From assembly GCA_021107795.1 (NCBI GenBank), contig JAIOSB010000027.1:290-64289 (forward strand): a stretch of DNA of 64,000 bases. Direction: 5' to 3'. This document shows positions 19,376 to 57,820 of the stretch, piece by piece (position 1 is the stretch's first letter; each line of letters opens with the position of its first letter). The position numbers were made by a program, and so were the translations under genes. The notes under the pieces are model-generated. The model worked only from the letters and a program-made list of their open reading frames with translations, was not told the origin of the DNA and searched no databases. The DNA comes from a bacterium. GTDB taxonomy: Bacteria > Patescibacteriota > Dojkabacteria > SC72.

Positions 19376-22300
19376 CTAGTTATTACCACATTGACCATCT
19401 AATTCACCATCTGGATGCCATATTAATGATTTGCATGTACTGTCTTCTGGTTGAAAGCTAGATATTCTCACAAAGTAGCCATTTGATGTAGTTATTGGAT
19501 AATCAAAACCATATTCTGTTCCCTCAGAGACTTGCAACCCCTCAAACATACCTTTTGATACAGGCCACCATGTTATATTATCTGCAGTTAAGCCTGAGAT
19601 TCTATTCACTGAGTCAATGAGTGTACGTGCTGTAAATGCTTTAGTATACCCACTTACTCCGATTAAGTTCCAACCAGGTATAAAACTTACAGGTACATTC
19701 GTATTAATATCAAATCCAGGAATAGGTATTCTACTATTCCTAGTAGCTACTATCGCATATCCAAAGCCTGGTAGTAGAGGGAAGTCAGAGCCGGCAGGAG
19801 TTCCTGATTCTGTAGACTTACTCATAATCCCTCCCTTCCACGATCCGTTGGAGAAGTATGTTATCTGACTGATTACTTCAAATTGGCTATTAGCTTCTTC
19901 CAATAGTTGTTCTGCAGTGTAGGATTCCCCGACATTCAGTGCAGGATAGAAATCGAATGATACTAGGTTTAAGCCCTCTTTCAGCACTATATCATACGCA
20001 TTAGATACTTGATTGACACTTAGTTCCAGCACACTAGATGATACTAAGTAGTCTCCATTTGCCACATCAAATTTCCCGTCATTGTTTATATCTTTATAAT
20101 ATATATATTTATAGTCAGCATTATAGTATTGCACGACGTTCTCACTATCTGGTCTAATTACTTCATAGTAACCATCTTTAGTCACACTTAAAAACAGCTC
20201 TTCCGTCTCTTGGGCCGACACTTTAGGTGCTGAGAAAGAGGCGATTTCCTGGAGGATATTATCCAAATTTAATGTACTAGTTTCAGAACATTCTCCAAAC
20301 GGTACAATTTTATATCCAGCTACACATCCTTTACCAACTTCTTGTTTTTGTTTTACTCCAAACCCACTATCACAACAGACATACCCTTCTTTAACATACT
20401 CTGTATCGAATGTAGCTGTACCACCTCCTGTTTTTATAACTGTATTAAAACTCTCACCATATATGGTTTCTAAATCAGCTTTCTGACCACAGGCATTAAA
20501 TTGAACCTCTATATCCCCTTTTGAGGTCAGGCAGTAATATTGAAGACCCTCAATTTCCTCCAAAGGTAGTAACCAACGATCGTCAAAAGAATCTTTATTA
20601 AAATCTCCGAGACTTTGCTTTGTTGGAGTCGCATAAGGAGTCTCGACTGATGGCCCAGAATAGTAATAATAATCTCCATCATCATCCAGATATATGTAAT
20701 CTCCATTCCAAGTAGGACTACCAACGTCATTTGCTATCACAAGATCCTCCGTTATAGTCTCTCTTAAAAAGTACGAGGCAGAGACACACTCTTTATTACC
20801 GCACTCATCACAATTGATAATATTTCCTTCATCCTTATTGAAACAGTACATCTCGTTTTCCAAATTAACAGATTTCACTACCTTATCAGCACAATACTCA
20901 TAAAAGTCTACCGTTTCATACTCACATTGACCAATTCCAGTTGGGTAGTAATTAGGGATATATACATAGCTAGATTCCTTTTTTACATTATGACAACACT
21001 CTAAGGCAATCACTTCTCCACTATCATTAGTTACAAGAGGTGCGAAATCTTCTGCAGACAGATTCCCTGATAATGAAGATTCCTCACCCTCCTCATTTGA
21101 GACGCTAGGTTGGCACTGAAACCAGAAGGATTCGCAGGGTGTGCCGTAATCGTCCTGGCTGGGACAGTTTATGAGATCATAGTCTGTAGTATAGTCTGAG
21201 CAGCGGAGTTTTCCCTCCTCCTCTTGATCTACACTTTCCTTCGGTTTAGGAGAAGGTAGTCCAGGATTATTACCCATACACTCGCTTTTCTCTTTATCCC
21301 AATAACAACCTCCATAATAATTCTCATTACAAACAGTTTCTGTAGTATAACCACTACAACCAGTTATCTCAGGACCCTCTACTACAAGTTCTATCTTGTC
21401 CTCAAGAAATCCCATAATCTCAGCACTCCCCTGCAAATCTCCAATAATATCTTCATATTCCGACGAATCTACAACGTCGACATTACCTGATACACTGTTT
21501 TTAACAAGTTCTCCATCTAATAAAGTATAGAGATTCCCTGCAGCATCTACTACTTGATCCTCTCCTATAACCTTCTTTTCTCCATCAACCTCAACCATCT
21601 GCCTACCCCTCTCCATACACCCCGCAGGCTTTGGACAAAGAGCTTGCAATCGGATATTAAATTGGCGAACTCCATTCCATAGACAAGTCTTGTAACAAGG
21701 ACTTGTTGGTGCACAACCACCAGCAAGAATAGGTCCATAAGAGACTGTTTTCCCTTCACTGTCCTCACACCTTGCCTCATCCCATGCAGCATTGACATAA
21801 GGTATAAAGGATTCTAATAAATCCTCTGCATTATTCTCAAAATCTATATCCTCTTCACTATTACCCAAGATACTCTCTACAGGAATATCATCTGTTCCAA
21901 AGGTTATCATATAGCACTGCTTTGGAGTAAAAGACTCATATTGATAACAAACCTCACCATTCATACCATTTATATCATCAAATACAGAACCATTTAAATC
22001 TCTAAAAGCCCCCTTATCAATACTCCACCCACCCTCACTATTAGTAGAAGCTGAAAGTAAATTAGAAATCAAAACATTACTCTCATCTACTACCCCTACA
22101 AAAACCATAGAATCTTTAGAGTCATCCTCATACAACAATCCTCCCGTATCAAGCTTCATACCATAAATCTTCCCATACATTGGATTAGGGACCACCATCT
22201 CGACAACATCCTGTATAACAGTTGTAACAGAAAACTCACTGAGAGTATCAAAAGCATATTCATATGAGTTTGTCTTACTACTAGACCATAGGAGTGAACC

Positions 22301-22714
22301 ATTTGATAATACAAAATTGTAAATCTTTCCTTCTTCAAGACCTGAAACAGTAACATGATGAACGTAATATTTATTATTCTTTACCTTGTATTCATTCAAA
22401 CAGTCAATACTATCTACACCACTCTCAAGTGCATCATTATTCAAATCTTCAACACAACTGGCCTGGGCTAAAACAACATCTCTATCATCATATGCAAACC
22501 TAACACCATTACTCCAGTACATTACAAATCCCTGTGTAGGCTGATGTGTTAGCCAGGATATAGTTGCAGAAGATGCAGTAATATTGGTAACCCTGACATC
22601 ATATGCTTGGAGCTTATTGCCCTGTACAATATAGTAAACTAGATAAGAGAAGGATATTAGCACAATAACTGTTAAGAGTCCCAATCCAAACATCTTGCTT
22701 CTTTTCATATTCAA
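19376..22714 (-). CDS. Giant (1112 aa) Cys-rich surface protein with N-terminal anchor and Fn3-like (PAP-N-like) domain
   Basis: TM anchor FGLGLLTVIVLISFSYLVYYIV, then the Fn3-like signature VTNITASSATISWLTHQPTQGFVMYWSNG...HHVTVSGLEEGKIYNFVLSNG. After that come >40 cysteines in clustered pairs (CDECGNKEC, ECCHN, VCCDSG). Confidence 0.5.
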   Translation of the reverse strand: MNMKRSKMFGLGLLTVIVLISFSYLVYYIVQGNKLQAYDVRVTNITASSATISWLTHQPTQGFVMYWSNGVRFAYDDRDVVLAQASCVEDLNNDALESGVDSIDCLNEYKVKNNKYYVHHVTVSGLEEGKIYNFVLSNGSLLWSSSKTNSYEYAFDTLSEFSVTTVIQDVVEMVVPNPMYGKIYGMKLDTGGLLYEDDSKDSMVFVGVVDESNVLISNLLSASTNSEGGWSIDKGAFRDLNGSVFDDINGMNGEVCYQYESFTPKQCYMITFGTDDIPVESILGNSEEDIDFENNAEDLLESFIPYVNAAWDEARCEDSEGKTVSYGPILAGGCAPTSPCYKTCLWNGVRQFNIRLQALCPKPAGCMERGRQMVEVDGEKKVIGEDQVVDAAGNLYTLLDGELVKNSVSGNVDVVDSSEYEDIIGDLQGSAEIMGFLEDKIELVVEGPEITGCSGYTTETVCNENYYGGCYWDKEKSECMGNNPGLPSPKPKESVDQEEEGKLRCSDYTTDYDLINCPSQDDYGTPCESFWFQCQPSVSNEEGEESSLSGNLSAEDFAPLVTNDSGEVIALECCHNVKKESSYVYIPNYYPTGIGQCEYETVDFYEYCADKVVKSVNLENEMYCFNKDEGNIINCDECGNKECVSASYFLRETITEDLVIANDVGSPTWNGDYIYLDDDGDYYYYSGPSVETPYATPTKQSLGDFNKDSFDDRWLLPLEEIEGLQYYCLTSKGDIEVQFNACGQKADLETIYGESFNTVIKTGGGTATFDTEYVKEGYVCCDSGFGVKQKQEVGKGCVAGYKIVPFGECSETSTLNLDNILQEIASFSAPKVSAQETEELFLSVTKDGYYEVIRPDSENVVQYYNADYKYIYYKDINNDGKFDVANGDYLVSSSVLELSVNQVSNAYDIVLKEGLNLVSFDFYPALNVGESYTAEQLLEEANSQFEVISQITYFSNGSWKGGIMSKSTESGTPAGSDFPLLPGFGYAIVATRNSRIPIPGFDINTNVPVSFIPGWNLIGVSGYTKAFTARTLIDSVNRISGLTADNITWWPVSKGMFEGLQVSEGTEYGFDYPITTSNGYFVRISSFQPEDSTCKSLIWHPDGELDGQCGNN

Positions 22715-34603: not shown

Positions 34604-36466
34604 ATGAATAAAAACTACTCCCCACAATCTGCCAAAAGAAATTTCCTCATGCTTTCATTCTTCTTGGTACTTTGCCTTCCCCTAATTGTATGGCAAGTCG
34701 TTAATGAAAACTTCGATATTCGAAACATGGCCTTCGAACAAATAGAGGTAAGTAAAGAGAACCCTTGCGTCATATCCTTTCCAAATGTAAACCCATATAC
34801 CATAGAAGTAAATAAAACGGTGCGAATGCAAGTAGAAGGAATTGCACAAGGAAGTGGGATAACCTCCATCCTCATTACAGACTCTACCGGAGAAGAAATC
34901 TTTTCTAAAACATATGAAAACGAAAGTAGTGAAATAGCGGAAACTTTCGAATTTACACCAACCACTTCCAAATCATACGAGATAATAGGGACACTCTCAG
35001 AAGGAAGCTACACCAGTGCATGTGTGATAAGTAGCCCATACGATGTAAAAGGAGTTCGTGTAGTAGCAAGTAACAGTGCACCCGAATTCACATCTACCCC
35101 CATAGACTCTACTCCATCACAAGATATCGATACAGATATAGCCTACGAATATACCCTAACCGCAACAGACCCTGAAGGAGACATGATTAATTACGTATTC
35201 TCATTCACTCCAAACGAAGATTGGATGAAGTACACAGTAATAAATGATGGAAGTAATGGAAACCTCAAAATACAATTTAAAGGAAGCACATCTCAACCTG
35301 CAAGCTACCTAGCAAACGTGTTCATACACGACGGATACAGTAAACACCTCAGATCACAATCATGGATAGTAAGCGTAAACCCTGCAGAAAATGATGTCCC
35401 ACGAGTAACAATACTCTCACCATGGGAGGCCCTCTCAGTGACACAAGGGAAAAACCTTACTGTAAAATGGGCAGCATCAGACCAAAACGCCATTACACAC
35501 TACGAACTTTACTTAGCACAAAGTCTCCAAGACGAAACTAAATGGCAGAGCATAGACAAAGATATTGCGTACAATATTGAGGAATACACCCTTAACACAG
35601 AAAATATCTCAGGAGGTATTTACCAAGCGATAATAAAAGCACCAGACAATCAAGACCCAGTACTTATAGGACAAGGAATCTCACCACCAATAACCATCAT
35701 AGGTAAAGAGATTGATACCCCAGATGACAGTGTAACACTACCAGAACCACAAATCATAAATATCTCACCAACAAGTGAAGATAGCATTACTAATGCTCTA
35801 GTTACAATCAGAGCATCATTACTCTCAAGCCAAGATTCTCAAATTGATGAAGACAGCATTCTATTCAAGATCGACAATAAGGACCTAACCTCCAATATTA
35901 AATTCAACAAGATCTCAGATTCTGAATACACACTAATATTCCAAACAGAGGAAGAATTCGATATAGGACTACATAAAGTAGAAATTTCCTTCACTGACAG
36001 CGAAGACCTACAATCCAGTAAAAGTTGGACATTCACAATCGAAGGGAAACAAACTGATCCAGACAAATTCTACTTCTTTGACTACGGTATAACAAAATCA
36101 ATAGTATATGTTGTAGGAGGAGGACTACTACTAATCATTCTCGCACTAGCAATTCCATTAATCCTCGTACAAGTATGGAAAGACGATGAGGAAACATCTG
36201 GAACAGATGATACGCTTACACCACCTACACATACCAATACTGTTGAGAATATTGTTAATAAAAACCAAACAATTGATACAGAACAAAAATTTTCAAAATT
36301 ACAACCCCTCACACAGCCAGAAAAGGATACTCCTCCACCAACAACCTTACAACCACAACCAAAGACAGAAAATACAGAAGAAGACCTTGAAATTCTTTAC
36401 CAAAAAATAAAAGATGAAAAAAACATCAGTACCGACAACGATACGCCTCCAGAACCAATCCTCTAG
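34604..36466 (+). CDS. Surface protein with putative-Ig (dystroglycan/cadherin-like, PF05345-like) domain, C-terminal TM anchor and Thr/Pro-rich tail
   Basis: Signal/TM N-terminus. The PF05345-like domain is APEFTSTPIDSTPSQDIDTDIAYEYTLTATDPEGDMINYVF...WM...NGNL (P.f.s.p...a..g..y.y.v.AtDpdGd.l.y). The C-terminal TM is VVGGGLLLIILALAIPLILV, followed by a T/P/Q-rich tail. Confidence 0.45.
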   Translation: MNKNYSPQSAKRNFLMLSFFLVLCLPLIVWQVVNENFDIRNMAFEQIEVSKENPCVISFPNVNPYTIEVNKTVRMQVEGIAQGSGITSILITDSTGEEIFSKTYENESSEIAETFEFTPTTSKSYEIIGTLSEGSYTSACVISSPYDVKGVRVVASNSAPEFTSTPIDSTPSQDIDTDIAYEYTLTATDPEGDMINYVFSFTPNEDWMKYTVINDGSNGNLKIQFKGSTSQPASYLANVFIHDGYSKHLRSQSWIVSVNPAENDVPRVTILSPWEALSVTQGKNLTVKWAASDQNAITHYELYLAQSLQDETKWQSIDKDIAYNIEEYTLNTENISGGIYQAIIKAPDNQDPVLIGQGISPPITIIGKEIDTPDDSVTLPEPQIINISPTSEDSITNALVTIRASLLSSQDSQIDEDSILFKIDNKDLTSNIKFNKISDSEYTLIFQTEEEFDIGLHKVEISFTDSEDLQSSKSWTFTIEGKQTDPDKFYFFDYGITKSIVYVVGGGLLLIILALAIPLILVQVWKDDEETSGTDDTLTPPTHTNTVENIVNKNQTIDTEQKFSKLQPLTQPEKDTPPPTTLQPQPKTENTEEDLEILYQKIKDEKNISTDNDTPPEPIL

Positions 36467-42141: not shown

Positions 42142-43863
42142 ATGGACCAGCAGAAGAAAAAATCCAAAACAATAACAAATATCCTTTTTACACTACTAGG
42201 AATACTAATCCTAGCCTTAGTCGGAGCAATAATATACTTCTACCTCATTGGAGATATTTTTCAGAAAGAGGAAGATCTAATAATAACCTGTGGATGTTAC
42301 TACATAGACCCTCAAGTTACTGACACATGTGGTGATACAAAAAGAGCTTTCAAGTTCAATACATCTACTGGCACATTAAACGAATGTTCTGCTTCCTGCC
42401 CACTTACAGAACTATCACCCAATATGCTTAACAGTACAACTCTACAAGAAGCTTACATAACTTGTACCACAAAGAATGTACCAAGTACCAAATGTAATGC
42501 AATGGAGATTAAAACAAAGGAAGGTCTAACCGTTACTGGAAAGATTAATCCAGAAGAAACAATAACTATTACTGCAACCTTTGATTCAACACAATATACA
42601 GATCACAAATTCCTAATAAACAATGTCCCCTCTCAACCTGATGAAACTACAGATACTACCATATCCAAAACACTTGCAGGTTTCGGAGACGACAGTACAC
42701 TACAAATCTCTGCACAAGCAGTAGACAGTACAGGAGATACAGTAAGTTCAATCATATGTAACAGACTAATCGAGATAACTACAACTACAGAAACTGGTGT
42801 AAGTGCACTAACACTTGATACATATACATCAAGTGGAAAAACAATAGTACAATCAGCACTCATATCTGCAGGAGGACTCAAAGACACATCCACTACTATA
42901 AAATTCTCTTTCAAGGATGAAGTACTTACAATGATAAACGGTTTTGAATTGGACCCAGACAAAGGACGAATCACAATCACAGAAAGTAATCTCTACAATT
43001 CTCTTAACTTCGTAGAAAGCAAATCATTTTCTGCTCTCGATACATATCAAGGAGATGTAACAGTAACAGCAGAAGTACTCCAAGACAATATCAGTCTAGG
43101 AACTGCGACTGAAGAAATAATTCTTTCAACCACTCAAGACGATCAAACACAAGAAGAAGATGAAGACGACACTACGGCAACTAAATCACAATTTAATGTG
43201 ACAAAAGCTTCTTCAGAAACATGTGTAGAAAGAGTCTCTCCAGATAACAGCTCCACATTTACAATAACTATTAGAAATAATGGAGAGGAGACTGACACCA
43301 TAGAATCAATAAAGGATAAACTCCCTCTAGGATTTGAATATGTAGCAAGCTCCTCTACGTTGAATGGAAACCCAATTGCAGATTCTGTGTTTGTAACGAC
43401 ATCAGACATAGGACAATCCCAAGAAATTGTATGGGAGCCACAAAACTCTTGGTCAATAGATACAGGAGAGACATTGATAATATCATTCAATGCAATTGCA
43501 GGAAGCGCATCTTTAACTGGTACAAACCTAAACGAAGTAATTGTAACACCATCTGAAATACCAGAAGACCCCGCAACACTAAGCTCCTCCATAGAAATAG
43601 TCGTTGCTCAAGACTGTGACGACATAGACACCACCGTACCTCAAACAGGGATATTTGACAGTATAGTTGGAAGAATCTTCTTCGGTATTGCTACCATCAT
43701 GATTGGGATAATAATATACAACACAAACAGAGGGACTCAGTTAGCCACAATGGTTATAAACTCAAATACATACAGAAACGCAGAAATGACATCCTACAAG
43801 ATATTCTCCCCTAAACGCTACTTTGAGGAAAGATTACTGGAGAGAAGAGAGAGAGAAAGATAA
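42142..43863 (+). CDS. Ser/Thr-rich surface protein with N-terminal anchor and a C-terminal VPQTG + hydrophobic + basic segment (candidate sortase sorting signal)
   Basis: N-terminal TM ILFTLLGILILALVGAIIYFYLI. Near the C-terminus, TTVPQTGIFDSIVGRIFFGIATIMIGIIIYNTNRGTQ is followed by ~40 further residues. Confidence 0.4.
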   Translation: MDQQKKKSKTITNILFTLLGILILALVGAIIYFYLIGDIFQKEEDLIITCGCYYIDPQVTDTCGDTKRAFKFNTSTGTLNECSASCPLTELSPNMLNSTTLQEAYITCTTKNVPSTKCNAMEIKTKEGLTVTGKINPEETITITATFDSTQYTDHKFLINNVPSQPDETTDTTISKTLAGFGDDSTLQISAQAVDSTGDTVSSIICNRLIEITTTTETGVSALTLDTYTSSGKTIVQSALISAGGLKDTSTTIKFSFKDEVLTMINGFELDPDKGRITITESNLYNSLNFVESKSFSALDTYQGDVTVTAEVLQDNISLGTATEEIILSTTQDDQTQEEDEDDTTATKSQFNVTKASSETCVERVSPDNSSTFTITIRNNGEETDTIESIKDKLPLGFEYVASSSTLNGNPIADSVFVTTSDIGQSQEIVWEPQNSWSIDTGETLIISFNAIAGSASLTGTNLNEVIVTPSEIPEDPATLSSSIEIVVAQDCDDIDTTVPQTGIFDSIVGRIFFGIATIMIGIIIYNTNRGTQLATMVINSNTYRNAEMTSYKIFSPKRYFEERLLERRERER

Positions 43864-46149: not shown

Positions 46150-47967
46150 ATGCACGAACTCAGTAAAATACGCAATTTCTCAATAATTGCACACATTGAC
46201 CATGGAAAATCTACACTAGCTGATAGGATACTAGAAGTTACAGACACAGATACCAGAAGTGAAAAACACGACGAACGAATCCTAGACAGACTAGAACTAG
46301 AACAAGAAAGAGGAATAACGATAAAACTACAAGCATGCAGAATGAACTACAAAGAATACCAACTAAACCTCATAGACACACCCGGACACGTAGACTTCTC
46401 CTACGAAGTATCCCGATCCCTAGCAGCCTGTGAAGCAGCCCTACTCCTAGTAGACGCATCACAAGGAATACAAGCACAAACAATATCAAACACCAAAAAA
46501 GCCCTAGACCTAGGACTCACCCTCATACCAGTACTAAACAAAATAGACCTACCACATGTCGATATAGAAGAAAGAGAACAAGAAATATGTAACCTTCTAG
46601 GATTTGAAAAAGAAGAGATTGTCAAAGTCTCTGCCAAAACAGGAGAAAATGTAGAACTCTTACTCGACGAGATAATAAAACAATGCCCACCGCCACAAGG
46701 CGACACCAAAGCCCCACTACAAGCCCTAATCTTTGACTCCTTCTACGACGAACACAGAGGAGTAGTCGTTGCTGTAAGAATATTCAATGGATCCATCTCT
46801 CACAAACACGGTAAACCACAAGACCTCTTCATGCTCCAAAAACAAGAAAGCTTCAAACCTACGGAAATAGGGATATTTAATCCAGATCTAAAAGAAACAA
46901 ACTCCCTAGGAACAGGAGAAGTCGGATACATTGCAACCGGACTCAAAGATATTAGATACTTCACAGTAGGAGACACAGTATCAGACCACAAAGAAACAAA
47001 AGCCCTACCCGGTTACCAAACACCAAAATCAAATGTATTCGCAACCTTCTTCCCAACTACCTCAGAAGATTACGAACTCCTTAAAATATCTCTAAACAAA
47101 TTAGCCCTAAACGATGCAGCACTCGTCTTCTCAGACCAAAGATCTGCACTACTAGGATCAGGATTTAGATGTGGTTTCCTAGGACTCCTACACATGCAAA
47201 TTGTACAAGAAAGATTAGAAAGAGAATATGATGTAGAACTGATAATTACAGCACCTACTGTAGAATATCACGTCACCTCTATCAACGATGAGAAATTAAT
47301 CATACAAACACCAAGTGAACTCCCAGACCCAAATAAAATAAAGGAAATCTCAGAACCATGGGTCAGAACAGAAATACTAACACCAGACAGATACATGGGA
47401 GACCTGATGAACCTTTGCCAAGCTCACAGAGGAACATACATAAATACCAAATACCTCTCACAAGGTGATGCCAACATCAAACTAAAAGACCAATACATCC
47501 TACTCGAATACGATATGCCACTAGCCTCTCTGATTTCCAACTTCTTCGATCAACTCAAAAACATCTCAAGTGGATACGCCTCCATGGAGTACGAATTTAT
47601 AGACTTCTTCCCAGTAGACCTAGTGAAAGTCTCTGTACTTGTAAACCACGATGAAATACCAGCCCTAAGCTTCCTAGAAACTAGAGAAGGAGCCAGACCA
47701 AAAGCAACGAAATTACTCGAAGTAATGAAAACAGTAATACCAAGACAACAATTCCCAATACCACTACAAGCCGCAATAGGAGCAAAAATCATTGCAAGAG
47801 AAGATGTAAGAGCATTCAGAAAAGATGTCACAGCCAATCTCTACGGTGGAGACTACAGTAGAAAACAAAAACTCCTCAAAAAACAAAAGAAAGGAAAGAA
47901 AAGACTTAAACAAGTCGGACGGGTCAATATCCCACAAGAAGCCTTCCTTGCAATATTAAAAACATAA
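46150..47967 (+). CDS. lepA: Elongation factor 4 (LepA)
   Basis: IRNFSIIAHIDHGKSTLADRIL...DTPGHVDF...NKIDLP and the LepA-specific C-terminal domain (...RQQFPIPLQAAIGAKIIAREDV...). Confidence 0.95.
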   Translation: MHELSKIRNFSIIAHIDHGKSTLADRILEVTDTDTRSEKHDERILDRLELEQERGITIKLQACRMNYKEYQLNLIDTPGHVDFSYEVSRSLAACEAALLLVDASQGIQAQTISNTKKALDLGLTLIPVLNKIDLPHVDIEEREQEICNLLGFEKEEIVKVSAKTGENVELLLDEIIKQCPPPQGDTKAPLQALIFDSFYDEHRGVVVAVRIFNGSISHKHGKPQDLFMLQKQESFKPTEIGIFNPDLKETNSLGTGEVGYIATGLKDIRYFTVGDTVSDHKETKALPGYQTPKSNVFATFFPTTSEDYELLKISLNKLALNDAALVFSDQRSALLGSGFRCGFLGLLHMQIVQERLEREYDVELIITAPTVEYHVTSINDEKLIIQTPSELPDPNKIKEISEPWVRTEILTPDRYMGDLMNLCQAHRGTYINTKYLSQGDANIKLKDQYILLEYDMPLASLISNFFDQLKNISSGYASMEYEFIDFFPVDLVKVSVLVNHDEIPALSFLETREGARPKATKLLEVMKTVIPRQQFPIPLQAAIGAKIIAREDVRAFRKDVTANLYGGDYSRKQKLLKKQKKGKKRLKQVGRVNIPQEAFLAILKT

Positions 47968-49052
47968 TGATTAAGAAGCTCAAATTAAACAACTTTAGGA
48001 AATTCAAAGACCTAGAATTAGAATTCACATCCGATATCATTGTCTTCCACGGTAACAATGCACAAGGAAAAAGCTCAATACTAGAAGCCCTCCACATCAT
48101 CTGTAACGGCAACTCACCATGGTCAAGTGGTAACGAATATATCAATAACAAACAAAATGGAATATCACAACACAGCAGAATTGAAATAACCACAAAAGAA
48201 CATACATATGCCCATTACAAAGACAAAAATCGCAAAACATATATGATAGACGACAGTAAAACCACACCCAAGAAATTCTTCATTAACAATTCCGCAACAA
48301 TCTTTAACCCAGAAAGAATAGACCTACTCATGCTCTCCCCTAACCAAAGAAGAACTTTCTTAGACGAAACCATCTCCGCTATAAACTACGAATACCCCTC
48401 CATACTCTCCAAATTCCGGAAAGTACTTAAACAAAGAAACTCTCACTTAAAGAAATTGGCTAAGAAGTTTTACGAAAAAGGAATAATCTCCAGACACGAC
48501 CCACAACTCAACTTCTGGACACTACAACTCTCAGAACTCTCCTCTATTATCTACATAGAAAGATTAAAGATTTTAGAAAAGTTCTCAGAAGAAAAGTTCT
48601 CACTTGAATATGACTTCTGCAATAAAAACCTACAACCCATTGAAAAGATAAAAAACAAAATAGAAGAAATCCAAAAGATTCTAGACCTTGCTCTGGAAGA
48701 CAACAAGAAACGAGACATAGTAACAGGCTACACCAATATAGGACCACACAGAGACGACTGGAATATATTTACAGACCAAGACATTAAAAAATATGGATCT
48801 CGTGGACAAAAAAGATTGGCTGTAGGCAATCTAGTCTTTAAATCCCATGAGATAATAGCAAAAGAGCTAGGATATCACCCTATCCTTCTACTAGACGATA
48901 TAGCATCAGAATTAGACATTAAAAATACAAAGGAAGTATTCAACAAAAAAGTATTAAACAAACAACAAACATTTATAACCACAGTAGATAAGAAAATATT
49001 ACCAAAACATATTCTAGAAAATGCCCAATTCTTCAATCTTAATAAATATTAG
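47967..49052 (+). CDS. recF: DNA replication and repair protein RecF
   Basis: Walker A NNAQGKSSILEAL, RecF signature GPHRDD, ABC-like signature SRGQKRL, Walker B ILLLDDIASELD; start overlaps the lepA stop. Confidence 0.75.
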   Translation: MIKKLKLNNFRKFKDLELEFTSDIIVFHGNNAQGKSSILEALHIICNGNSPWSSGNEYINNKQNGISQHSRIEITTKEHTYAHYKDKNRKTYMIDDSKTTPKKFFINNSATIFNPERIDLLMLSPNQRRTFLDETISAINYEYPSILSKFRKVLKQRNSHLKKLAKKFYEKGIISRHDPQLNFWTLQLSELSSIIYIERLKILEKFSEEKFSLEYDFCNKNLQPIEKIKNKIEEIQKILDLALEDNKKRDIVTGYTNIGPHRDDWNIFTDQDIKKYGSRGQKRLAVGNLVFKSHEIIAKELGYHPILLLDDIASELDIKNTKEVFNKKVLNKQQTFITTVDKKILPKHILENAQFFNLNKY

Positions 49053-49840
49053 GTTCTCTCTAAGATATCCCTCCTAAAATCTCTAGGAAAGAACTCTATT
49101 CTCCCCTTCCCAAACCCCCTTAACAACCTCCTCACATCAGGCCTATGCCTCATTAATAGCATAAACACGAACTGTCCACAGAAACAAAAACAGTTAACAG
49201 GAAACAGTAAATAATTTCTTTTACTCAACCCCTTCAACATCCCCATTCTAATATCCTCCTTCTTTAAGAAAGACTCTGATACCAAAAACTTCTCTTTCAA
49301 CCAACTATTCTGAAGAAAGATAACACTCAAAAACTCCTTCTTATAAACCGGCTTCAGAAATAATAACTCATTCAAATTGAAAATATCATCATCAAATACC
49401 AAACTCCTCTCCTCTGTCAAAAGATTAATACACAACTTATCCTTCACCTCCAACCTCTTCTTTTTTAATCTAACTCTCTGTTCAAATATATTCCTAAAAT
49501 ACAAAAACAATCTATACACCCAAACCACATCATTTCTCGTTACAATAAATAGATCGATATCATCCCCATCCTCTACATACTCAGATGCAATAGAGCCAGA
49601 TATTCCAATAAACCGAACAAAAGGTTTGAATACAATCCAAGACAAAGATTTCTCTAACATACCCATTTTTTTCTCCATCATATCCCTCTGCACATCACTA
49701 ATCCCACTATACTCCTCACCATCTACCTCCAATCCCCACACCTCCATCACTTTCTGCTTACTAAGACATGCAGGAATATTCTTCCTGAAATTATACAACT
49801 CCTCCATATTCAAGTACTCACTCTCATTGTTTTTTCCCAT
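49049..49840 (-). CDS. Hypothetical protein with minimal nucleotidyltransferase-like motif (Pol-beta superfamily?)
   Basis: FIGISGSIASEYVEDGDDIDLFIV fits hG[GS]-x(9-13)-Dh[DE]h; the rest is unrecognised. Confidence 0.3.
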   Translation of the reverse strand: MGKNNESEYLNMEELYNFRKNIPACLSKQKVMEVWGLEVDGEEYSGISDVQRDMMEKKMGMLEKSLSWIVFKPFVRFIGISGSIASEYVEDGDDIDLFIVTRNDVVWVYRLFLYFRNIFEQRVRLKKKRLEVKDKLCINLLTEERSLVFDDDIFNLNELLFLKPVYKKEFLSVIFLQNSWLKEKFLVSESFLKKEDIRMGMLKGLSKRNYLLFPVNCFCFCGQFVFMLLMRHRPDVRRLLRGFGKGRIEFFPRDFRRDILERT

Positions 49841-49910
49841 ATGTATATATATAGAACAAATATTATCGGTTATTCAAACAATATTAATGCTATGGTAAAC
49901 TAAAAGCAAG

Positions 49911-50732
49911 ATGAAACAACATCCAATACCACAAAACGTGCTAGATGTTGAGTTTAAACTCTTCACTAGATTCACAATCAAGGAATTTGCATACCTAGCA
50001 GCAGGGATAGTTAGTGGGTCACTCTTCCTTGTCCTAAACAAACAACTAGGTCTCCCCAGCCTCATTGCATGGCCATCATTTCTCACTCTCTCAGCCATTG
50101 GAGCATTCTTCGCATTAGTACCAATCAACGACCAAGGAGCAGATGAATTTATAAAAAATTACTTCACTGCGATAAAGAAACCAACTCAACGAGTATGGCT
50201 AAATGAACAAATGCAAAGTCAAAGAGTAAAACCAATAGTGAAAACAGAAGACGAAGGCAAAGGAAAGATCGTAGGAGGTAAAATTACAAAGAAAGAAAAA
50301 ACCTTCATTGAAAAACCGGGAGATGATATCCTTCAAGTACAAACATCCCAAACCACTACTAAGCCAGAACCAACGATACAACCCTCCAATTCTTTACCAC
50401 AAACCATTGTCATCGGACCTCAAAATATTTCTCAATATCAATTCGGCATAAAAAGTGTAAATAGACTACCTGGAAATATGAATATTTGGTTGACAGATAC
50501 AAATGACCGAGGACTTGCAAACATTCCAGTATATCTCAAAGACCAAAATGGGAAAGTCATATTCGCTAATAGAACAGGACAGAATGGATACTTCATATTA
50601 AACAAAATCCTCCCACAGGGTATATACCACATACAATTTGATCAACATACATATAAAATTCCAAATATTCAGTGGATATTAGAAAATACACAAAGTAAAA
50701 ACCCAATTAAAATTACAGCGAAACTCGCATGA
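49911..50732 (+). CDS. PrgI/VirB3-like T4SS membrane protein fused to a C-terminal transthyretin/carboxypeptidase-regulatory-like beta domain
   Basis: The N-terminus IPQNVLDVEFKLFTRFTIKEFAYLAAGIVSGSLFLVL...LIAWPSFLTLSAIGAFFALVPI matches the PrgI-family pattern (P.d...eDk..g.ft.rq..yl, two TM). The C-terminus NIWLTDTNDRGLANIPVYLKDQNGKVIFANRTGQNGYFILNKILPQGIYHIQF is a CarboxypepD_reg-like beta sandwich. Its stop overlaps the next start (ATGA). Confidence 0.5.
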   Translation: MKQHPIPQNVLDVEFKLFTRFTIKEFAYLAAGIVSGSLFLVLNKQLGLPSLIAWPSFLTLSAIGAFFALVPINDQGADEFIKNYFTAIKKPTQRVWLNEQMQSQRVKPIVKTEDEGKGKIVGGKITKKEKTFIEKPGDDILQVQTSQTTTKPEPTIQPSNSLPQTIVIGPQNISQYQFGIKSVNRLPGNMNIWLTDTNDRGLANIPVYLKDQNGKVIFANRTGQNGYFILNKILPQGIYHIQFDQHTYKIPNIQWILENTQSKNPIKITAKLA

Positions 50733-51379
50733 ATACAAAAGATAGAGCAAGAGCAACAACCTCTACACAGAGTCACCTAGAGGTAAAAAACATTGTAGAT
50801 GATCTTGTCATCACAAAAAGTGGAAGTGTAGCACTAGTAGTACAAACAAATGCAATAAACTTCGACCTGTTAGCAGAGTACGAACAAGATAGTAAAATAT
50901 ACGCATTTGCGGGACTACTCAACTCCCTTAACTTCCATATACAAATCCTCATCCGAACACAACGAATAGATATCTCTAACTACATTGATCATCTTAAAAA
51001 TCAAAAACAAAAAAACATGTCTGAAGGTCTTAAAGATATGCTCACCACCTACACCCTTTTTGTACAAAACTTAATTGTAGAAAATAATGTTCTTGATAAA
51101 AACTTCTATCTTGTAATACCATACAATCCTGCAGCCATAATGCCAGATGCGAATATCTTTAGTGCAAAGAAAACAAAGGAAGAACAAGAGACACAAAAAG
51201 CCATGAAAAGAGACCACCTACTTGAAAAAGCTAAGATATTTCTTTACCCCAAGAGAGACCATATTATCAAACAACTAGGAAGAATGGGCCTAATGGGGCA
51301 CCAGTTAACAAACCAGGAACTCATAACTGAGTTCTACACAACATATAATCCAGGAGAGGAGGGAAACAGTGGAAGATAA
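50729..51379 (+). CDS. Hypothetical soluble 216-aa protein in the T4SS module
   Basis: No TM; the segment LVITKSGSVALVVQTNAINFDLLAEYEQDS...LLNSLNFHIQILIRTQRID loosely resembles VirB4 N-terminal regions. It is translationally coupled on both sides (ATGA with the upstream gene and an 11-nt overlap with the downstream gene). Confidence 0.35.
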   Translation: MNTKDRARATTSTQSHLEVKNIVDDLVITKSGSVALVVQTNAINFDLLAEYEQDSKIYAFAGLLNSLNFHIQILIRTQRIDISNYIDHLKNQKQKNMSEGLKDMLTTYTLFVQNLIVENNVLDKNFYLVIPYNPAAIMPDANIFSAKKTKEEQETQKAMKRDHLLEKAKIFLYPKRDHIIKQLGRMGLMGHQLTNQELITEFYTTYNPGEEGNSGR

Positions 51380-53759
51380 AACATTACAAAACAAACAAAT
51401 TAATTCTCAAGTTACAGATAAAATTGGTAGTAACCCTCTAAATAAATATGCGGATATTGCAAACAAAGTCCAACAAGAGGTGAATACAGTACAGGAAAGC
51501 AAGATTAACAATATCCAAAAAGACAGATTTGAAGACACTGTAATCAAGAAAGACAAAAAAAGCAATATTATATCTAAAATGCTAGACAAATTTACTCCAA
51601 ATCCTAAAAAAACAAAACCTGACACAGAACCCTCCGTAGAAGCTCAATCCAGACCTACTGCCGACTTCTCTGGACTCTCACTAACAGATATTGTAGCTCC
51701 CCTTGACCTTGAAGTAGATTTCAATCATCTCCAGATGGGAGACTATTACTTCAAAACTTTCTTTATCAGTGGATATCCAAGATTTGTAGGTCCGAACTGG
51801 CTCTCACCTATAATCAATTTCGAACACTCTCTTCGTATTAGTACGTTTTACTACCCTGTAGACTCCAAGATTATAATGGAAAAACTAAAGAAAAAGATTG
51901 GGGAAATGGAAGCAACCCTTTACAGTCAGATGGAAGATAGAAAAGTAATTGATGCATCTCTCAAGGTAAAACTCTCTGATGCTCAACAACTTCAAGATTC
52001 AATAGCGGAAGGAAGTGAAAAGTTCTTCCATTTTGCAATGTATATAACAATATATGCTCCAAACAAGAAACTTCTAGAGAAATACTCCAGAAATATTACC
52101 TCTACACTTGCAGCTATGAATGTAACAGCCAAATCTGCAACTCTTCTTCAAGAACCCGGCTTTATCAGTACACAACCACTTGCATTAGACAAAATCCATA
52201 TCACTCGTAATATGGATACCACATCTTTAGCTACCACATTCCCATTTGTCTCCTCAGAACTCACTATGAACCACGGTATCATGTATGGTCTGAACTTGCA
52301 TAATAATAGTTTGGTAGTATTTGACAGATTCGAATTAGAGAATGCCAACACTGTAGTATTTGCTAAATCTGGAGCTGGTAAAAGTTACTTTGTAAAACTA
52401 GAAGCCGTAAGAAGCTTAATGATGGGTACAGAGATAATAATCATAGACCCAGAGCGTGAGTATGAAGACCTCTCTAAGGCCGTAGAAGGATCATACATAT
52501 CCTTCTCACAAGACAAAGGTCATAAGATGAACCCTTTTGAACTCTCCGGTATGGCAGACGAAGACGACGATGAACTCCGAATGAAGATGCTCTCTCTACT
52601 CGGATTCTTCAAAGTCATGTTTGAAGGCCTATCCAACGTTGAATCTTCAGTACTAGACAGAGCATTAATACTCACCTACAGAGAAAAAGGAATCACATTT
52701 GATCCAAGAACTCAAAAGAAAGATCCTCCTCTACTTGAAGACCTTTACAAAGTTCTTAAAGGCATGGCAGAAGACGAAGCTCATAACTTAGCTAGAAGAA
52801 TGGAAAAATACATCATAGGAAGTGGTGCAGGAATATTTAACGAAGCAAGTAACTTTGAGATAAGCAATCCATTTACCGTCTTTAGTGTAAGAGATCTCCA
52901 AGAAGAACTAAAACCCTTAGCAATGTATCTAATGCTTGACTTTATATGGACTAGAATTAGAAAAGTTCGAAAACGACGATTACTAATCGTAGATGAGGCT
53001 TGGTACATGATGGAAAGAGAAGACTCTGCAAAATTTATGTATGCTATGGCCAAACGAGCAAGAAAATACTATCTAGGCCTCACAACTATTACTCAAGATG
53101 TTGCAGACTTTACCAAAAACGAAATGGGTAAAGCCATCATTTCAAACTCCTCTATACAGATGCTAATGAAACAAAGCCCCTCTGCAGTAGAAACCCTACA
53201 AGCAGTATTTAATCTCTCTGATGGTGAAAGAAACTTCCTATTAAACTGTGATCGAGGACAAGGACTATTCTTTGCTGGCTCAAATCATGTAGGAATACAG
53301 GTTCTCTCTAGCCAAGCAGAGCACGAATTAATTACATCTGATCCTAGAGATATTGAGGCGAAAGAAAAAAGAATAGCACAAGGGATTAAAGATACACGAA
53401 CTAGGGAGGAACTTGCAAAGGTTTTTGCCCCACCATCCGCCCAACAACCCATGAGAGATGGAACTACAATTGCAAAACAGCTATCTATGATTGAAAGAGC
53501 TGCACAGAAAAGGAAGGATGATAAGGTGCAGATAGAGGGAGAACGAAGAAACTATGAAGAAGAAGTACGTAGGAAATTGGAAGAAAAAGATAGAGAACTC
53601 AATCCTGATAAATATACTCATCAGAAATCTTTCAACCAGATTATCGAAGAGAATACAATTCCTGGTCAAGTAGTACAAGCTCGAAAAGACACACAAAGAG
53701 GAAGGCAACATGTCACTCCTCAAGGATTGGTCGACTATAACAATAACGATGGGAAATAA
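51369..53759 (+). CDS. VirB4/TrbE/CagE-family type IV secretion ATPase
   Basis: 796 aa. The Gram-positive VirB4-like N-domain is LDLEVDFNHLQMGDYYFKTFFISGYPRFVGPNWLSPII. Walker A is VVFAKSGAGKSYFVK, Walker B is RRLLIVDEAWYMM, and the C-terminal motifs are ...GLTTITQDVADF... Confidence 0.85.
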   Translation: MEDKTLQNKQINSQVTDKIGSNPLNKYADIANKVQQEVNTVQESKINNIQKDRFEDTVIKKDKKSNIISKMLDKFTPNPKKTKPDTEPSVEAQSRPTADFSGLSLTDIVAPLDLEVDFNHLQMGDYYFKTFFISGYPRFVGPNWLSPIINFEHSLRISTFYYPVDSKIIMEKLKKKIGEMEATLYSQMEDRKVIDASLKVKLSDAQQLQDSIAEGSEKFFHFAMYITIYAPNKKLLEKYSRNITSTLAAMNVTAKSATLLQEPGFISTQPLALDKIHITRNMDTTSLATTFPFVSSELTMNHGIMYGLNLHNNSLVVFDRFELENANTVVFAKSGAGKSYFVKLEAVRSLMMGTEIIIIDPEREYEDLSKAVEGSYISFSQDKGHKMNPFELSGMADEDDDELRMKMLSLLGFFKVMFEGLSNVESSVLDRALILTYREKGITFDPRTQKKDPPLLEDLYKVLKGMAEDEAHNLARRMEKYIIGSGAGIFNEASNFEISNPFTVFSVRDLQEELKPLAMYLMLDFIWTRIRKVRKRRLLIVDEAWYMMEREDSAKFMYAMAKRARKYYLGLTTITQDVADFTKNEMGKAIISNSSIQMLMKQSPSAVETLQAVFNLSDGERNFLLNCDRGQGLFFAGSNHVGIQVLSSQAEHELITSDPRDIEAKEKRIAQGIKDTRTREELAKVFAPPSAQQPMRDGTTIAKQLSMIERAAQKRKDDKVQIEGERRNYEEEVRRKLEEKDRELNPDKYTHQKSFNQIIEENTIPGQVVQARKDTQRGRQHVTPQGLVDYNNNDGK

Positions 53760-53976
53760 TACAGACACTACAATAAATGAAAGTATCTATTTGGTCACAA
53801 AGAAATGTGATGTTAAACACCTATCTCAAGACAAACGTGGTAAAGATTTAGGTGCACTTAAAAAGGCAGAAGAAAGGTCAAAGAAGCGCATGGATATTAC
53901 ATTCGGAAAGAAAGACAACGAAACAACCAGAGCTATGAATGCTCTCAGTATAATGAATCCATTTAAAGGAGTTTAA
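53749..53976 (+). CDS. Small basic hypothetical protein (75 aa) trailing the VirB4 gene
   Basis: ORF only; Lys/Arg-rich; start overlaps the VirB4 3' end. Confidence 0.2.
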   Translation: MGNNTDTTINESIYLVTKKCDVKHLSQDKRGKDLGALKKAEERSKKRMDITFGKKDNETTRAMNALSIMNPFKGV

Positions 53977-55172
53977 CTCAAAGGCCCTTGGTCTGGTAAC
54001 ACAAAATCCCTCAAGTTCTCAGTTGTAATGACTACCGGTATTGGAGAACCGGTTACTAACTTCCTTGCTACTGTTCTAACCAAAGTATATATATTTCTTT
54101 CTAGTTGTCTAATACCTGCATCAAATCCCACTGGTCTAATTAATACTGGCCATACACTATCTTGTATTTGTAGATATTGTTCACTTAGCCCTGTCTCCTT
54201 AAGAATTTTTGGTAATATATAATTCCTTGCAATTACTCCCTTCTCTTCATCTGAGTAGCTAGAAAAACGAATAACTTCTACACGATCAAGGAGTGCAGCA
54301 GACAATCCTCCCAGATTGTTTGCAGTACATATAAAAAAAACATTGGATAGATCTACAGGATAATCTACATAGTGATCCACAAAGGATTTGTTTTGTTCTG
54401 GATCTAATATTTCAAGTAAAGCAGCCATCACATCATTAAGAAGACCCTCCTGTGCACTAGACTTCTCTATTTCATCTAGCAGTATGACAGGGTTCATACT
54501 TTGTGTTCTAACTAATGCTTTAATAATCTGTCCTGGCTCAGCTCCATCGGAATATCTTGGTACTCCTCTTAATGTTTTTACATCCCCTATTGCTCCAAGA
54601 GAGATTCTTGCAAATTTCCTACCCATAGCTTTAGCAATAGATGCTGCGATAGATGTTTTCCCTACTCCTTGCAGACCAACAAATAGAAGTACCGGAGACT
54701 TAATCATTGTATCTACCCTATTATCAGCTACCGCTGGGATATTATAAGCAGTAGGGAAATCCTTGTTCCTTAAAGTCACTGGTTCTGGTGCTTTTGTACC
54801 TATCCCTTTATTTTGTAACTGCATTACTGCAAGGTAATCAAGAATGATATTCTTAACAGTATTCATACCATGGTGGGTAGAATCCATTGCTTTCCTTGCA
54901 TTTTCAATATCATAATTGTCTGCAGACAGTTTTCCCCAAGGTATTTTTGTTATCCAATCCACATACTTATCTATTGTTTCAAATTCAGTACTATAATTCC
55001 CATACTTAGCCATACGAGAAAGTCTAGATATTGCTTTAAGGATATCCTCTTTGAAATCATAAGGTATATTTACACTATCTAGCTTTCTTTGTAATTCCTT
55101 TATCTCTGCCAGAAAATCATCCTGCACACTTTGTATAGGGTTTGGGGCATTGTTCATATATGATAATAACAT
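53973..55172 (-). CDS. Lon-family AAA+ ATPase module without LON N-domain and without S16 protease domain
   Basis: YVDWITKIPWGKL...ILDYLAV (Lon middle region), Walker A LLFVGLQGVGKTSIAASIAKAMGRKF, Walker B VILLDEIEKS, LEILDPEQNKSFVDHY, sensor FICTANN, LLDRVEVIRFSSYSDEEK. The protein ends ~60 aa after the AAA+ helical lid. The flanking genes are sufS (2 nt away) and the plus-strand small ORF. Confidence 0.7.
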   Translation of the reverse strand: MLLSYMNNAPNPIQSVQDDFLAEIKELQRKLDSVNIPYDFKEDILKAISRLSRMAKYGNYSTEFETIDKYVDWITKIPWGKLSADNYDIENARKAMDSTHHGMNTVKNIILDYLAVMQLQNKGIGTKAPEPVTLRNKDFPTAYNIPAVADNRVDTMIKSPVLLFVGLQGVGKTSIAASIAKAMGRKFARISLGAIGDVKTLRGVPRYSDGAEPGQIIKALVRTQSMNPVILLDEIEKSSAQEGLLNDVMAALLEILDPEQNKSFVDHYVDYPVDLSNVFFICTANNLGGLSAALLDRVEVIRFSSYSDEEKGVIARNYILPKILKETGLSEQYLQIQDSVWPVLIRPVGFDAGIRQLERNIYTLVRTVARKLVTGSPIPVVITTENLRDFVLPDQGPLS

Positions 55173-56479: not shown

Positions 56480-57820
56480 CTATTTCTTAAACAAAGGATC
56501 TTTCTGAAAGAAAAGTTTATTCCATTGATTAATATATTTAATATCTGAATTCTTTAAATTGAAAATATCCTTAATATCCAAATACATATTAAATTTGGTT
56601 AAGTGACTCAGGGGAAGAAGATATTTTGTAAACTCTTTTGACATTTCATCAGACATATATTCTTTTGACTTCTCTCTCCAATTCTTTATATCTACATATG
56701 TCTCAAGAAGATTCCTATTCATATCCCTTTGAAGCTCTGAGTATTTCTTAAGAGATTTTGGTAGTAAGTAGCACTGAGAGTTCTTTCTTTCAAGTTCTTT
56801 ATCAATATCTATGAAGTCTGAAAGAAGTGGTACATATATTGTGTAGTTTTGATCTAGTATTTCAAAAACATCTGTAAGTGGTAAATATCCAGAAAGACGA
56901 CTACCCTTCTGAAATCCTAAATATCCTATATCTCCTTTGTTAATTGTTTTTCCAATAGAGAGTTGATCTTCGTAATCAAATTCTAATTCTTCTTTACTAC
57001 CCAGAGGATTGATTAGCATTTCAAGATTTGTAAATACTTGTTCTACAATGTCTGTGATATATTCAAACTTAAAAGGTTCGGAATCATCTAAATCAAACTC
57101 CTGCTCTTTAGATACGCACTCTTCTAAATATTCTAATATCTTTATTGTAGTCACTCTTTGAGTGCAGTCTGGTATTACCTCAATATCAGTCTTAAGCAAT
57201 TTTTCTAACATATCACCTAGTTGATTATCTAGTACCATATCGCTACACAATAGAGTGTTAGCTAGTTCAATATTGGAGCTTAGGGAGAGGGAGATAGCTG
57301 CTCGATGTTGTATACCGAGTGGTAGGAGAGATTTAGCAAATTCTTTATATTGATTTCCCCTTTTCTTAGCCACTAACCAGTAATTCCTCATACTATTCAG
57401 TTGAATATTTTCATATTCCTTCCTAATCTCCCTGTTCTCACAAACTTCTGTGGGTATTCTGACAAAGTAGGAGCTATCTCTATTTATATATTTCCAATCT
57501 CTTAGTTTGAAAAATGAGCTTGAGGATAGGGAAGAGAGTTTGAGAAATGTATATATTGGGATATTGTCTACAATATATGTTCTGTTATTTATTTCATACA
57601 TATCATCAAGTGGAAATTCTTTCCAATCGTCAATCTCACAACTTTTGCATATATCAAGAATACTTGCTTTGCTACTAAGAGCTTGTTTAATGATGTAGTG
57701 AGTTCTGAGTTTAGAACTGTAATCTTCATTACTTAGTATTGAGAATATTCGTAGTCTATTCCAATATTCATCAGTTCTAATATCTTCTATATGAAGACCT
57801 TTTCTTTGTATTAATTTCAT
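56480..57820 (-). CDS. Hypothetical 446-aa soluble protein
   Basis: No confident motif. A ThyX-like interpretation was considered and not supported (see noticed_but_rejected). Confidence 0.4.
   Translation of the reverse strand: MKLIQRKGLHIEDIRTDEYWNRLRIFSILSNEDYSSKLRTHYIIKQALSSKASILDICKSCEIDDWKEFPLDDMYEINNRTYIVDNIPIYTFLKLSSLSSSSFFKLRDWKYINRDSSYFVRIPTEVCENREIRKEYENIQLNSMRNYWLVAKKRGNQYKEFAKSLLPLGIQHRAAISLSLSSNIELANTLLCSDMVLDNQLGDMLEKLLKTDIEVIPDCTQRVTTIKILEYLEECVSKEQEFDLDDSEPFKFEYITDIVEQVFTNLEMLINPLGSKEELEFDYEDQLSIGKTINKGDIGYLGFQKGSRLSGYLPLTDVFEILDQNYTIYVPLLSDFIDIDKELERKNSQCYLLPKSLKKYSELQRDMNRNLLETYVDIKNWREKSKEYMSDEMSKEFTKYLLPLSHLTKFNMYLDIKDIFNLKNSDIKYINQWNKLFFQKDPLFKK

Follow-up and report, generated by a model that had tools for sequence, protein, structure and literature searches.

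Dojkabacteria (Patescibacteria) have a chromosomal type IV secretion system (T4SS) of the monoderm type, and its subunit of the VirB3/PrgI type is an extended protein, which is described here from one genome and followed through its relatives. The window, by which is meant the whole analysed stretch of 64,000 nucleotides (contig JAIOSB010000027.1 of assembly GCA_021107795.1, positions 290 to 64,289), contains the gene as the first in a translationally coupled operon that continues with a TrsD-like gene and a VirB4 gene (Table 1). The gene product, 273 amino acids long, has three parts: an N-terminal PrgI/VirB3 module with a two-helix membrane hairpin, a variable linker, and a C-terminal beta-sandwich of the transthyretin-like type. 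This three-part architecture is the usual form of the protein in a large Patescibacterial clade. The evidence, taken as a whole, slightly favors the explanation that the protein is a VirB3-type anchor with a cytoplasmic, tethered, protein-binding beta-sandwich.

Few large machines are kept in the reduced genomes of Patescibacteria; the T4SS is among them, and VirB3 is its least understood core subunit. A long tether with a folded domain is routine in Patescibacteria and is found in none of the characterized plasmid systems, which suggests that the T4SS mechanism has a component peculiar to this lineage. NCBI holds a protein that is 100% identical to the one in the window, labelled 'PrgI family protein [bacterium]', and annotations of this kind hide over half of the protein. 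In the one tractable species, Southlakia epibionticum, the T4SS genes, including the one for PrgI, are essential for growth on the host bacterium, according to Wang et al. 2023 (PMC10633639). The significance of the extension is moderate, because the T4SS is essential for the epibiotic lifestyle.

The operon and the PrgI/VirB3 module

Residues 5-94 of the window protein match the Pfam family PrgI (PF12666) with 27.9 bits, which passes the cut-off of 27 marginally. The same family matches all 36 aligned family members, with a best E value of 1.4e-9, and distant long homologues score between 28 and 41 bits. The module is built from a conserved helix in the N-terminal tail (residues 1-25), the membrane hairpin, and a conserved helical region after the membrane (residues 71-108). 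A hydropathy scan gives only two hydrophobic segments, at about residues 26-42 and 50-70 with a turn of 7 residues between them, and an AlphaFold2 model of the full-length protein, computed from the family alignment, has helices at residues 8-19, 23-46, 50-69, and 77-88. The succession of an N-terminal helix, a two-helix hairpin, and a C-terminal helix that is typical of PrgI and VirB3 is found in the window protein, and its gene is adjacent to and co-oriented with virB4, with the TrsD-like gene between them. The protein departs from its family in size: the described members have about 10-15 kDa and short extensions, while here 165 residues follow the PrgI module. This oversize argues for a variant, and would not count against homology of the N-terminal module. 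When solved structures were searched by sequence, with the profile of the module or the TrsD-like protein as query, nothing meaningful was returned. A preliminary description of the locus, made from the DNA alone, had named the protein PrgI/VirB3-like and had taken normal PrgI proteins to have about 120 amino acids. The gene is found at the positions given there. The family identity is confirmed by the PF12666 match and by the position of the gene directly before those for the TrsD-like protein and VirB4, and the small size of the described proteins by published values of 117 amino acids for PrgI and 10-15 kDa for VirB3 (PMC12857230).

The three genes of the operon overlap. The TGA stop codon of PrgI shares the letters ATGA (50729-50732) with the ATG start codon of the TrsD-like gene, which in turn overlaps the start of the VirB4 gene. 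The TrsD-like protein matches the NCBIfam model TrsD/TraD (NF041427) with an E value of 8e-7, and also the Mycoplasma VirB4 model NF045975 at positions 100-233, both below cut-off. It seems from these matches that the N-terminal region of VirB4 is encoded separately, as a TrsD-like protein of 216 amino acids that is translationally coupled on both sides. The VirB4-family ATPase itself scores 389.6 bits against the NCBIfam model conju_CD1110 (cut-off 325). Proteins of the VirB4 type are motors that are anchored to the membrane by VirB3-type proteins. The conju_CD1110 model covers residues 94-643 of the ATPase only; the approximately 93 N-terminal residues are of low complexity, the approximately 150 C-terminal residues are highly charged and coiled coil-like, and neither end has a family match.

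A separately encoded N-terminal region of VirB4 (TrsD) is already known for Patescibacteria from a survey of their T4SSs (Quinonero-Coronel et al. 2025, PMC12102498). The survey describes PrgI, TrsD, and VirB4 as widespread and often located near the replication origin, and reports no VirB3-VirB4 fusions. The widely distributed components that it names are VirB4, TrsD, PrgI/VirB3, VirB6, and VirB2-like proteins, with no wall-spanning part among them.

The comparison of the locus took in 80 species-level loci of Dojkabacteria. The most frequent arrangement is LepA, RecF, a nucleotidyltransferase (minus strand), PrgI, the TrsD-like protein, VirB4, and a Lon-like AAA protein (minus strand). The full order is seen in 37 of the 80, and most of the other orders are without the nucleotidyltransferase or are cut by the end of a contig. 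In the window, the part from LepA to the Lon-like AAA protein extends from 46150 to 55172. The TrsD-like gene has the same position in all 80 loci, and every PrgI open reading frame that is not cut by a contig end encodes between 255 and 455 amino acids. From the conserved gene order follows that this is a stable chromosomal locus and not a mobile element. In two distant loci with a long PrgI (L081 and L082), PrgI, which here matches both PF12666 and PF13620, is followed by a TraC-like gene (PF26593) and then VirB4. These operons adjoin dnaN, a recF-like gene, yidC, and rnpA, and their PrgI proteins have 717 (P0236) and 890 (P0234) amino acids. The location beside dnaN fits the near-origin location of the Patescibacterial T4SS given in the survey (PMC12102498).

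The same loci bear on the question whether the length of the protein could be an artefact, so that a small gene for PrgI and an unrelated open reading frame downstream of it had been joined by a mis-assembly, a frameshift, or a mis-called gene. Nothing was found in favor of this. Assemblies of 80 species, made independently, and hundreds of metagenomic contigs have the same uninterrupted open reading frame, and both conserved parts lie in one frame with no stop codon between them, which makes an artefact extremely improbable.

The C-terminal domain, the linker, and their spread

In the full-length AlphaFold2 model, an all-beta domain begins at about residue 161, with predicted local distance difference test (pLDDT) values of 83-95. 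When the C-terminal domain is modelled alone, the pLDDT is 91.7 and the predicted template modelling score 0.83. Foldseek comparison of the segment with the PDB gives a CnaB2 domain (8bdw, E value 2e-5, target TM-score 0.70), SdrD B domains, the transthyretin-like (TTL) domains of two carboxypeptidases, D and N (5aq0, target TM-score 0.70-0.73), the BcpA pilin, and transthyretin itself. The fold is that of a transthyretin-like beta-sandwich. Pfam matches to residues 195-250 stay below threshold, with 22.4 bits for SdrD_B (cut-off 29.7) and 19.1 bits for CarboxypepD_reg (cut-off 32.3), and 6 of the 36 Dojkabacteria members match CarboxypepD_reg at E<=0.01. The domain can, however, be linked to that family through the longer homologues, among which P0234 (33.2 bits), P0269 (36.1 bits), and P0186 (33.5 bits) have C-terminal domains that pass Pfam CarboxypepD_reg (PF13620). 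When the Dojkabacterial C-terminal domain is aligned by hhalign with those of the long forms, the probability is 97% and the E value 1e-10. Since the C-terminal domains are homologous across the family, the fusion has been inherited and not repeatedly assembled. The preliminary description had proposed an extra transthyretin/CarboxypepD_reg-like domain and a Foldseek search for it; the all-beta model, the structural matches to transthyretin/CarboxypepD-type folds, and the hhalign link all bear the proposal out.

Membership of the CnaB class with isopeptide bonds was also considered, by sequence. The first strand is without a conserved Lys, and the conservation of K263, K267, and N172 in Dojkabacteria does not extend to the PrgI family at large; membership of this class is unlikely.

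The extent of the architecture can be described at three distances from the window protein. Homologues at E<=1e-3 number 373, and the 120 listed have 265-299 amino acids and cover, in nearly all cases, 98-100% of the query; those that are named come from Dojkabacteria/WS6. An alignment of 36 homologues has three zones, which are almost invariant (residues 1-108), variable (109-165), and conserved (166-273). In a set of 74 sequences, made up of the window protein and orthologues taken from the species-level loci of Dojkabacteria, the fraction that shares the consensus residue is 0.93 in the N-terminal tail, 0.68 in the hairpin, 0.72 in the region after the membrane, 0.33 in the linker, and 0.60 in the C-terminal domain. 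At the greatest distance, a scan of 1.84 billion cluster representatives (50% identity) with the family profile gave 1738 with E<=1e-3, of which 1207 have E<=1e-10, and the best 150 were scanned again with separate profiles for the N-terminal module and the C-terminal domain. In 114 of these best 150, the module is N-terminal and the domain lies at the extreme C-terminus, the total lengths being 215-890 amino acids (median 388) and the linkers 53-688. Ten of the longest representatives carry PF12666, three of which pass the CarboxypepD_reg threshold, and further relatives of the extended PrgI reach 1005 amino acids.

Named members with the same architecture beyond Dojkabacteria are 'Patescibacteria group bacterium' and candidate division WWE3. 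A narrower scan of genomes with an alignment of the N-terminal module found almost only Dojkabacteria, and the breadth of the long forms therefore comes from a few named proteins. The N-terminal module by itself was found in proteins named Microgenomates, Woesebacteria, and Amesbacteria, those listed being labelled partial. A word-indexed search with the profile of the module returned short proteins only, several of the named ones again labelled partial, and cannot serve as a survey of lengths. Three short proteins with the C-terminal domain alone (P0137, P0147, and P0164) were considered as split genes; they are probable fragments, since all begin just after the N-terminal module and P0137 and P0147 are without an initial Met.

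The survey of relatives that the preliminary description called for finds the extension in every complete orthologue from the 80 Dojkabacteria species and in the 114 representatives above. Its statement that such a fusion is atypical holds in comparison with the characterized plasmid systems, but not within Patescibacteria, where the fusion is the common form. No account of the architecture turned up when the literature was searched for PrgI in combination with CarboxypepD_reg, and the searchable text of PMC12102498 and PMC10633639 gives no description of this C-terminal domain. The extended PrgI is apparently a variant of a known component that is visible in precomputed domain tables and undiscussed in the literature. 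In Southlakia epibionticum (PMC10633639), the PrgI gene SEML1_0010 is classed as essential, has 903 bp, and lies before the genes for the TrsD-like protein and VirB4; its product has 300 amino acids, with an extension that was assigned a helical fold, similar to TFIIS domain 2/KIX. It seems that an extended PrgI is general in Patescibacteria, with a terminal domain that differs by class.

The linker has AlphaFold2 pLDDT values below 50 at residues 110-131 and 141-160, a net charge of -5, and a Lys-rich start. Within it, the 36-sequence alignment of Dojkabacteria shows two nearly invariant islands, K-K-I-I-G-G at about residues 119-123 and F-x-E-x-P-G-D-D-I-L at about 131-141 (window positions 50265-50333), in which K119, G122, E134, G137, D138, D139, and I140 show little or no variation. 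The linkers of the long homologues contain much Pro, Thr, Gln, and Ser and often include a coiled coil, with matches of the intermediate-filament type. Some of the long Patescibacterial homologues, such as P0234, P0269, P0236, and P0186, have a linker motif G-(E/T)-I-(V/L)-L-P-I-R-G-E-R-I-L (LPIRGERIL), the strict pattern of which occurs in 8 of the 114 three-part representatives. The Dojkabacterial islands and the LPIRGERIL-type motif may be equivalent docking motifs.

Because linker lengths and compositions vary so widely, it could be thought that the extension is a lineage-specific and largely dispensable appendage, in which a low-complexity accretion and a decaying captured domain have no role in secretion. 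The different, helical extension of the Saccharibacterial PrgI points in the same direction, as do a few family members of about 180 amino acids that look complete (P0378 and P0359). Such an appendage would, however, hardly be retained at the extreme C-terminus, and be homologous across the family, in so large a part of the divergent representatives. Its domain would not be expected to be better conserved than the linker, as it is among the 74 Dojkabacteria sequences, and reduced genomes would not be expected to keep useless sequence. We consider a dispensable appendage improbable.

Topology and possible roles of the extension

To see on which side of the membrane the extension lies, consider first the number of membrane passes. 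No robust third hydrophobic segment was found in 135 representatives, a few weak extra segments being located inside beta strands of the C-terminal domain. From two membrane helices and no third segment follows that both termini are on the same side. The loop between the helices has 3-8 residues across the relatives, and in many only a few. Counted over 112 representatives, the N-terminal tail has 3.1 Lys and Arg residues, the loop has 0.7, and the stretch of 35 residues that follows helix 2 has 5.6. With the positive-inside rule, this pattern gives an in-out-in topology. Neither a signal peptide nor a sortase motif was found in the window protein. In Agrobacterium, reporter fusions made by Mossey and coworkers in 2010 reportedly placed both VirB3 termini in the cytoplasm. 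VirB3-VirB4 fusion proteins also exist, which is consistent with cytoplasmic termini. In the cryo-electron microscopy structure of the R388 system, VirB3 crosses the membrane with its helices 2 and 3 and is wrapped around the N-domain of VirB4 (PMC9259494), and VirB3 proteins are described with short cytoplasmic extensions at both termini (review PMC12857230). As far as the sequences can tell, the linker and the beta-sandwich are probably in the cytoplasm. The preliminary description had called the domain extracellular, a placement that the two membrane helices, the distribution of Lys and Arg, and the cytoplasmic termini of VirB3 do not support; for the carbohydrate- or wall-binding role that it suggested, nothing was found in support.

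When the topology is combined with homology to VirB3, a mechanism can be outlined. The N-terminal module would act like VirB3, with its hairpin in the membrane, and its N-terminal tail and post-membrane helix would hold the VirB4 N-domain, of which TrsD would supply a part, at the cytoplasmic face. The linker and the beta-sandwich would hang in the cytoplasm beside TrsD and VirB4. If the stoichiometry is that of R388, there would be six copies per machine, each a beta-sandwich on a flexible line by the ATPase. In the weakest step of the proposal, the beta-sandwich would be a tethered protein-binding module. It could be a peripheral tether that docks on the VirB4/TrsD ATPase assembly, for which the linker islands may provide extra docking motifs and the charged C-terminal tail of VirB4 could be the docking site. 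As an alternative binding role, the domain might bring substrates or a partner protein to the machine at its base, in systems in which a coupling protein is unrecognizable or dispensable. The high conservation of the N-terminal tail, together with islands inside a variable linker, suggests partner binding.

Several observations weigh against this cytoplasmic arrangement, and the first of them favor an arm that spans the envelope. In such an arm, the beta-sandwich would be outside and the linker would pass through the wall or S-layer, so that the domain could bind peptidoglycan, polysaccharide, or the host cell in a VirB10/TonB-like or adhesin-like manner. The domain is of a type typical of exported proteins; CarboxypepD_reg, SdrD-B, and CnaB-type domains are found overwhelmingly in such proteins. 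The only proteins other than PrgI recovered by the family profile are of the surface type, with 998-1525 amino acids and 5-10 repeats; signal peptides or wall anchors are present in several of them. In the long homologues, the domain is preceded by spacers rich in Pro, Thr, and Gln and by coiled coils, as is the case in envelope-spanning proteins. A terminal beta domain that comes after a long Pro/Thr-rich spacer and a coiled coil recalls TonB, TolA, and VirB10, which span the envelope. The survey (PMC12102498) does not list a wall-spanning part among the widely distributed Patescibacterial T4SS components, which would leave a place for the arm. Further points against the cytoplasmic arrangement are that the net charge of the N-terminal tail is small, +0.35, and that the Dojkabacterial C-terminal domain itself reaches no Pfam threshold.

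An envelope arm, however, requires that both termini are outside or that a third membrane pass has gone undetected, and there are two segments in nearly all of the 135 representatives. It has further to be reconciled with the scarcity of Lys and Arg in the short loop as compared with the residues after helix 2, with the Lys-rich start of the Dojkabacterial linker, with the cytoplasmic VirB3 termini of the characterized systems, and with the absence of a signal peptide. We therefore regard the arm as rather unlikely. It is a tentative suggestion, less likely than not, that the PrgI extension is an unrecognized structural element of the secretion machine, either as six tethered beta-sandwiches that form a receptor for substrates or partners at the cytoplasmic entrance, or as a VirB10/TonB-like arm to the host, the latter against the predicted topology. 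In either case, as receptor or as arm, a new function would be added to VirB3, which has so far been regarded only as a small membrane anchor for VirB4.

Surrounding genes and known systems

The features of the operon and of the extended protein are collected in Table 1. No second copy of the C-terminal domain or of the N-terminal module is present elsewhere in the window, and scans of it for promoters and terminators gave background level only. The window is AT-rich, with a G+C content of about 36%, and contains housekeeping genes for EF-G, IF-2, PNPase, AlaRS, a UvrD-type helicase, SHMT, FolD, and a cysteine desulfurase-like aminotransferase. The Lon-like AAA protein that adjoins VirB4 in most Dojkabacteria loci is encoded here at 53973-55172 (minus strand); it has 399 amino acids, with an AAA+ module and a Lon lid domain, and no match to the Lon protease domain. 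Large proteins at 10898-13807, 19376-22714, and 16670-18283 (minus strand) and at 34604-36466 and 42142-43863 (plus strand) have no Pfam match or weak ones of the Ig/fn3 type (Pur_ac_phosph_N, fn3, Big_7, and DUF11). They are probably surface proteins of this bacterium, and none is like a known T4SS part. An open reading frame of 446 codons at 56480-57820 (minus strand) resembles ThyX only weakly and over part of its length (Thy1, 26.6 bits, residues 110-194), is unusually long for ThyX, and has folate/one-carbon genes (SHMT and FolD) as neighbors.

Table 1. Coordinates of the extended PrgI gene, the parts of its product, and the following genes of the operon (positions in the window).
Feature	Position	Strand	Basis
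Whole gene: extended PrgI/VirB3-family protein, 273 amino acids and stop	49911..50732	+	Open reading frame list, ATG start, full-length homologues in Dojkabacteria/WS6
N-terminal PrgI/VirB3 module, residues 1-108	49911..50234	+	Pfam PF12666, AlphaFold2, conservation
Two-helix membrane hairpin, residues ~26-70	49986..50120	+	Hydropathy scan, AlphaFold2
Variable, acidic, disordered linker, residues 109-165	50235..50405	+	pLDDT, conservation, charge
C-terminal transthyretin-like / CarboxypepD_reg-type beta-sandwich, residues 166-273	50406..50729	+	
TrsD-like gene, 216 amino acids, free-standing relative of VirB4 N-terminal region	50729..51379	+	NF041427 match, ATGA overlap
VirB4-family ATPase, 796 amino acids	51369..53759	+	NCBIfam conju_CD1110; Pfam P-loop_TraG, AAA_10, CagE_TrbE_VirB

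When the window protein is compared with PrgI of the Enterococcus plasmid pCF10 and VirB3/TrwM of R388, all have an N-terminal helix, a two-helix hairpin, and a following helix, and their genes are located immediately upstream of VirB4 genes. By analogy with these proteins, the expected role of the N-terminal module would be that of a membrane receptor for the VirB4 N-domain. The plasmid proteins have 100-120 amino acids and short termini, in contrast to the 273 amino acids, the long linker, and the folded C-terminal domain of the window protein, and the window locus differs from theirs also by the separate TrsD-like protein between PrgI and VirB4.

The joining of a membrane anchor, a tether or stalk, and a cytoplasmic binding domain is known from ZipA, from the FtsK linker, and from the b-subunit stalk of the F-ATPase. 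The long homologues may be likened to these in architecture only; there is no relationship in sequence or fold, and the machine is a different one. The CarboxypepD_reg/TTL domains of carboxypeptidase D (5aq0) and of the N-terminal extension of a SusC-type transporter (9hfj) are extracellular or periplasmic. Unlike these, the C-terminal domain of the window protein follows a hairpin with a predicted cytoplasmic C-terminal end, and stays below the Pfam threshold. Unlike CnaB domains (8bdw, BcpA 3kpt, and SdrD B), it has no conserved first-strand Lys and no family-wide isopeptide triad, and the protein has neither a signal peptide nor a sortase motif.

The chromosomal T4SSs of Patescibacteria (PMC12102498 and PMC10633639) are also among the closest known systems, and share with the window operon the order PrgI, TrsD, VirB4 and the N-terminal module; the window operon follows recF. 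As in Southlakia, where the protein has 300 amino acids, PrgI is extended, but the extension is a beta-sandwich here and is described as helical there (PMC10633639).

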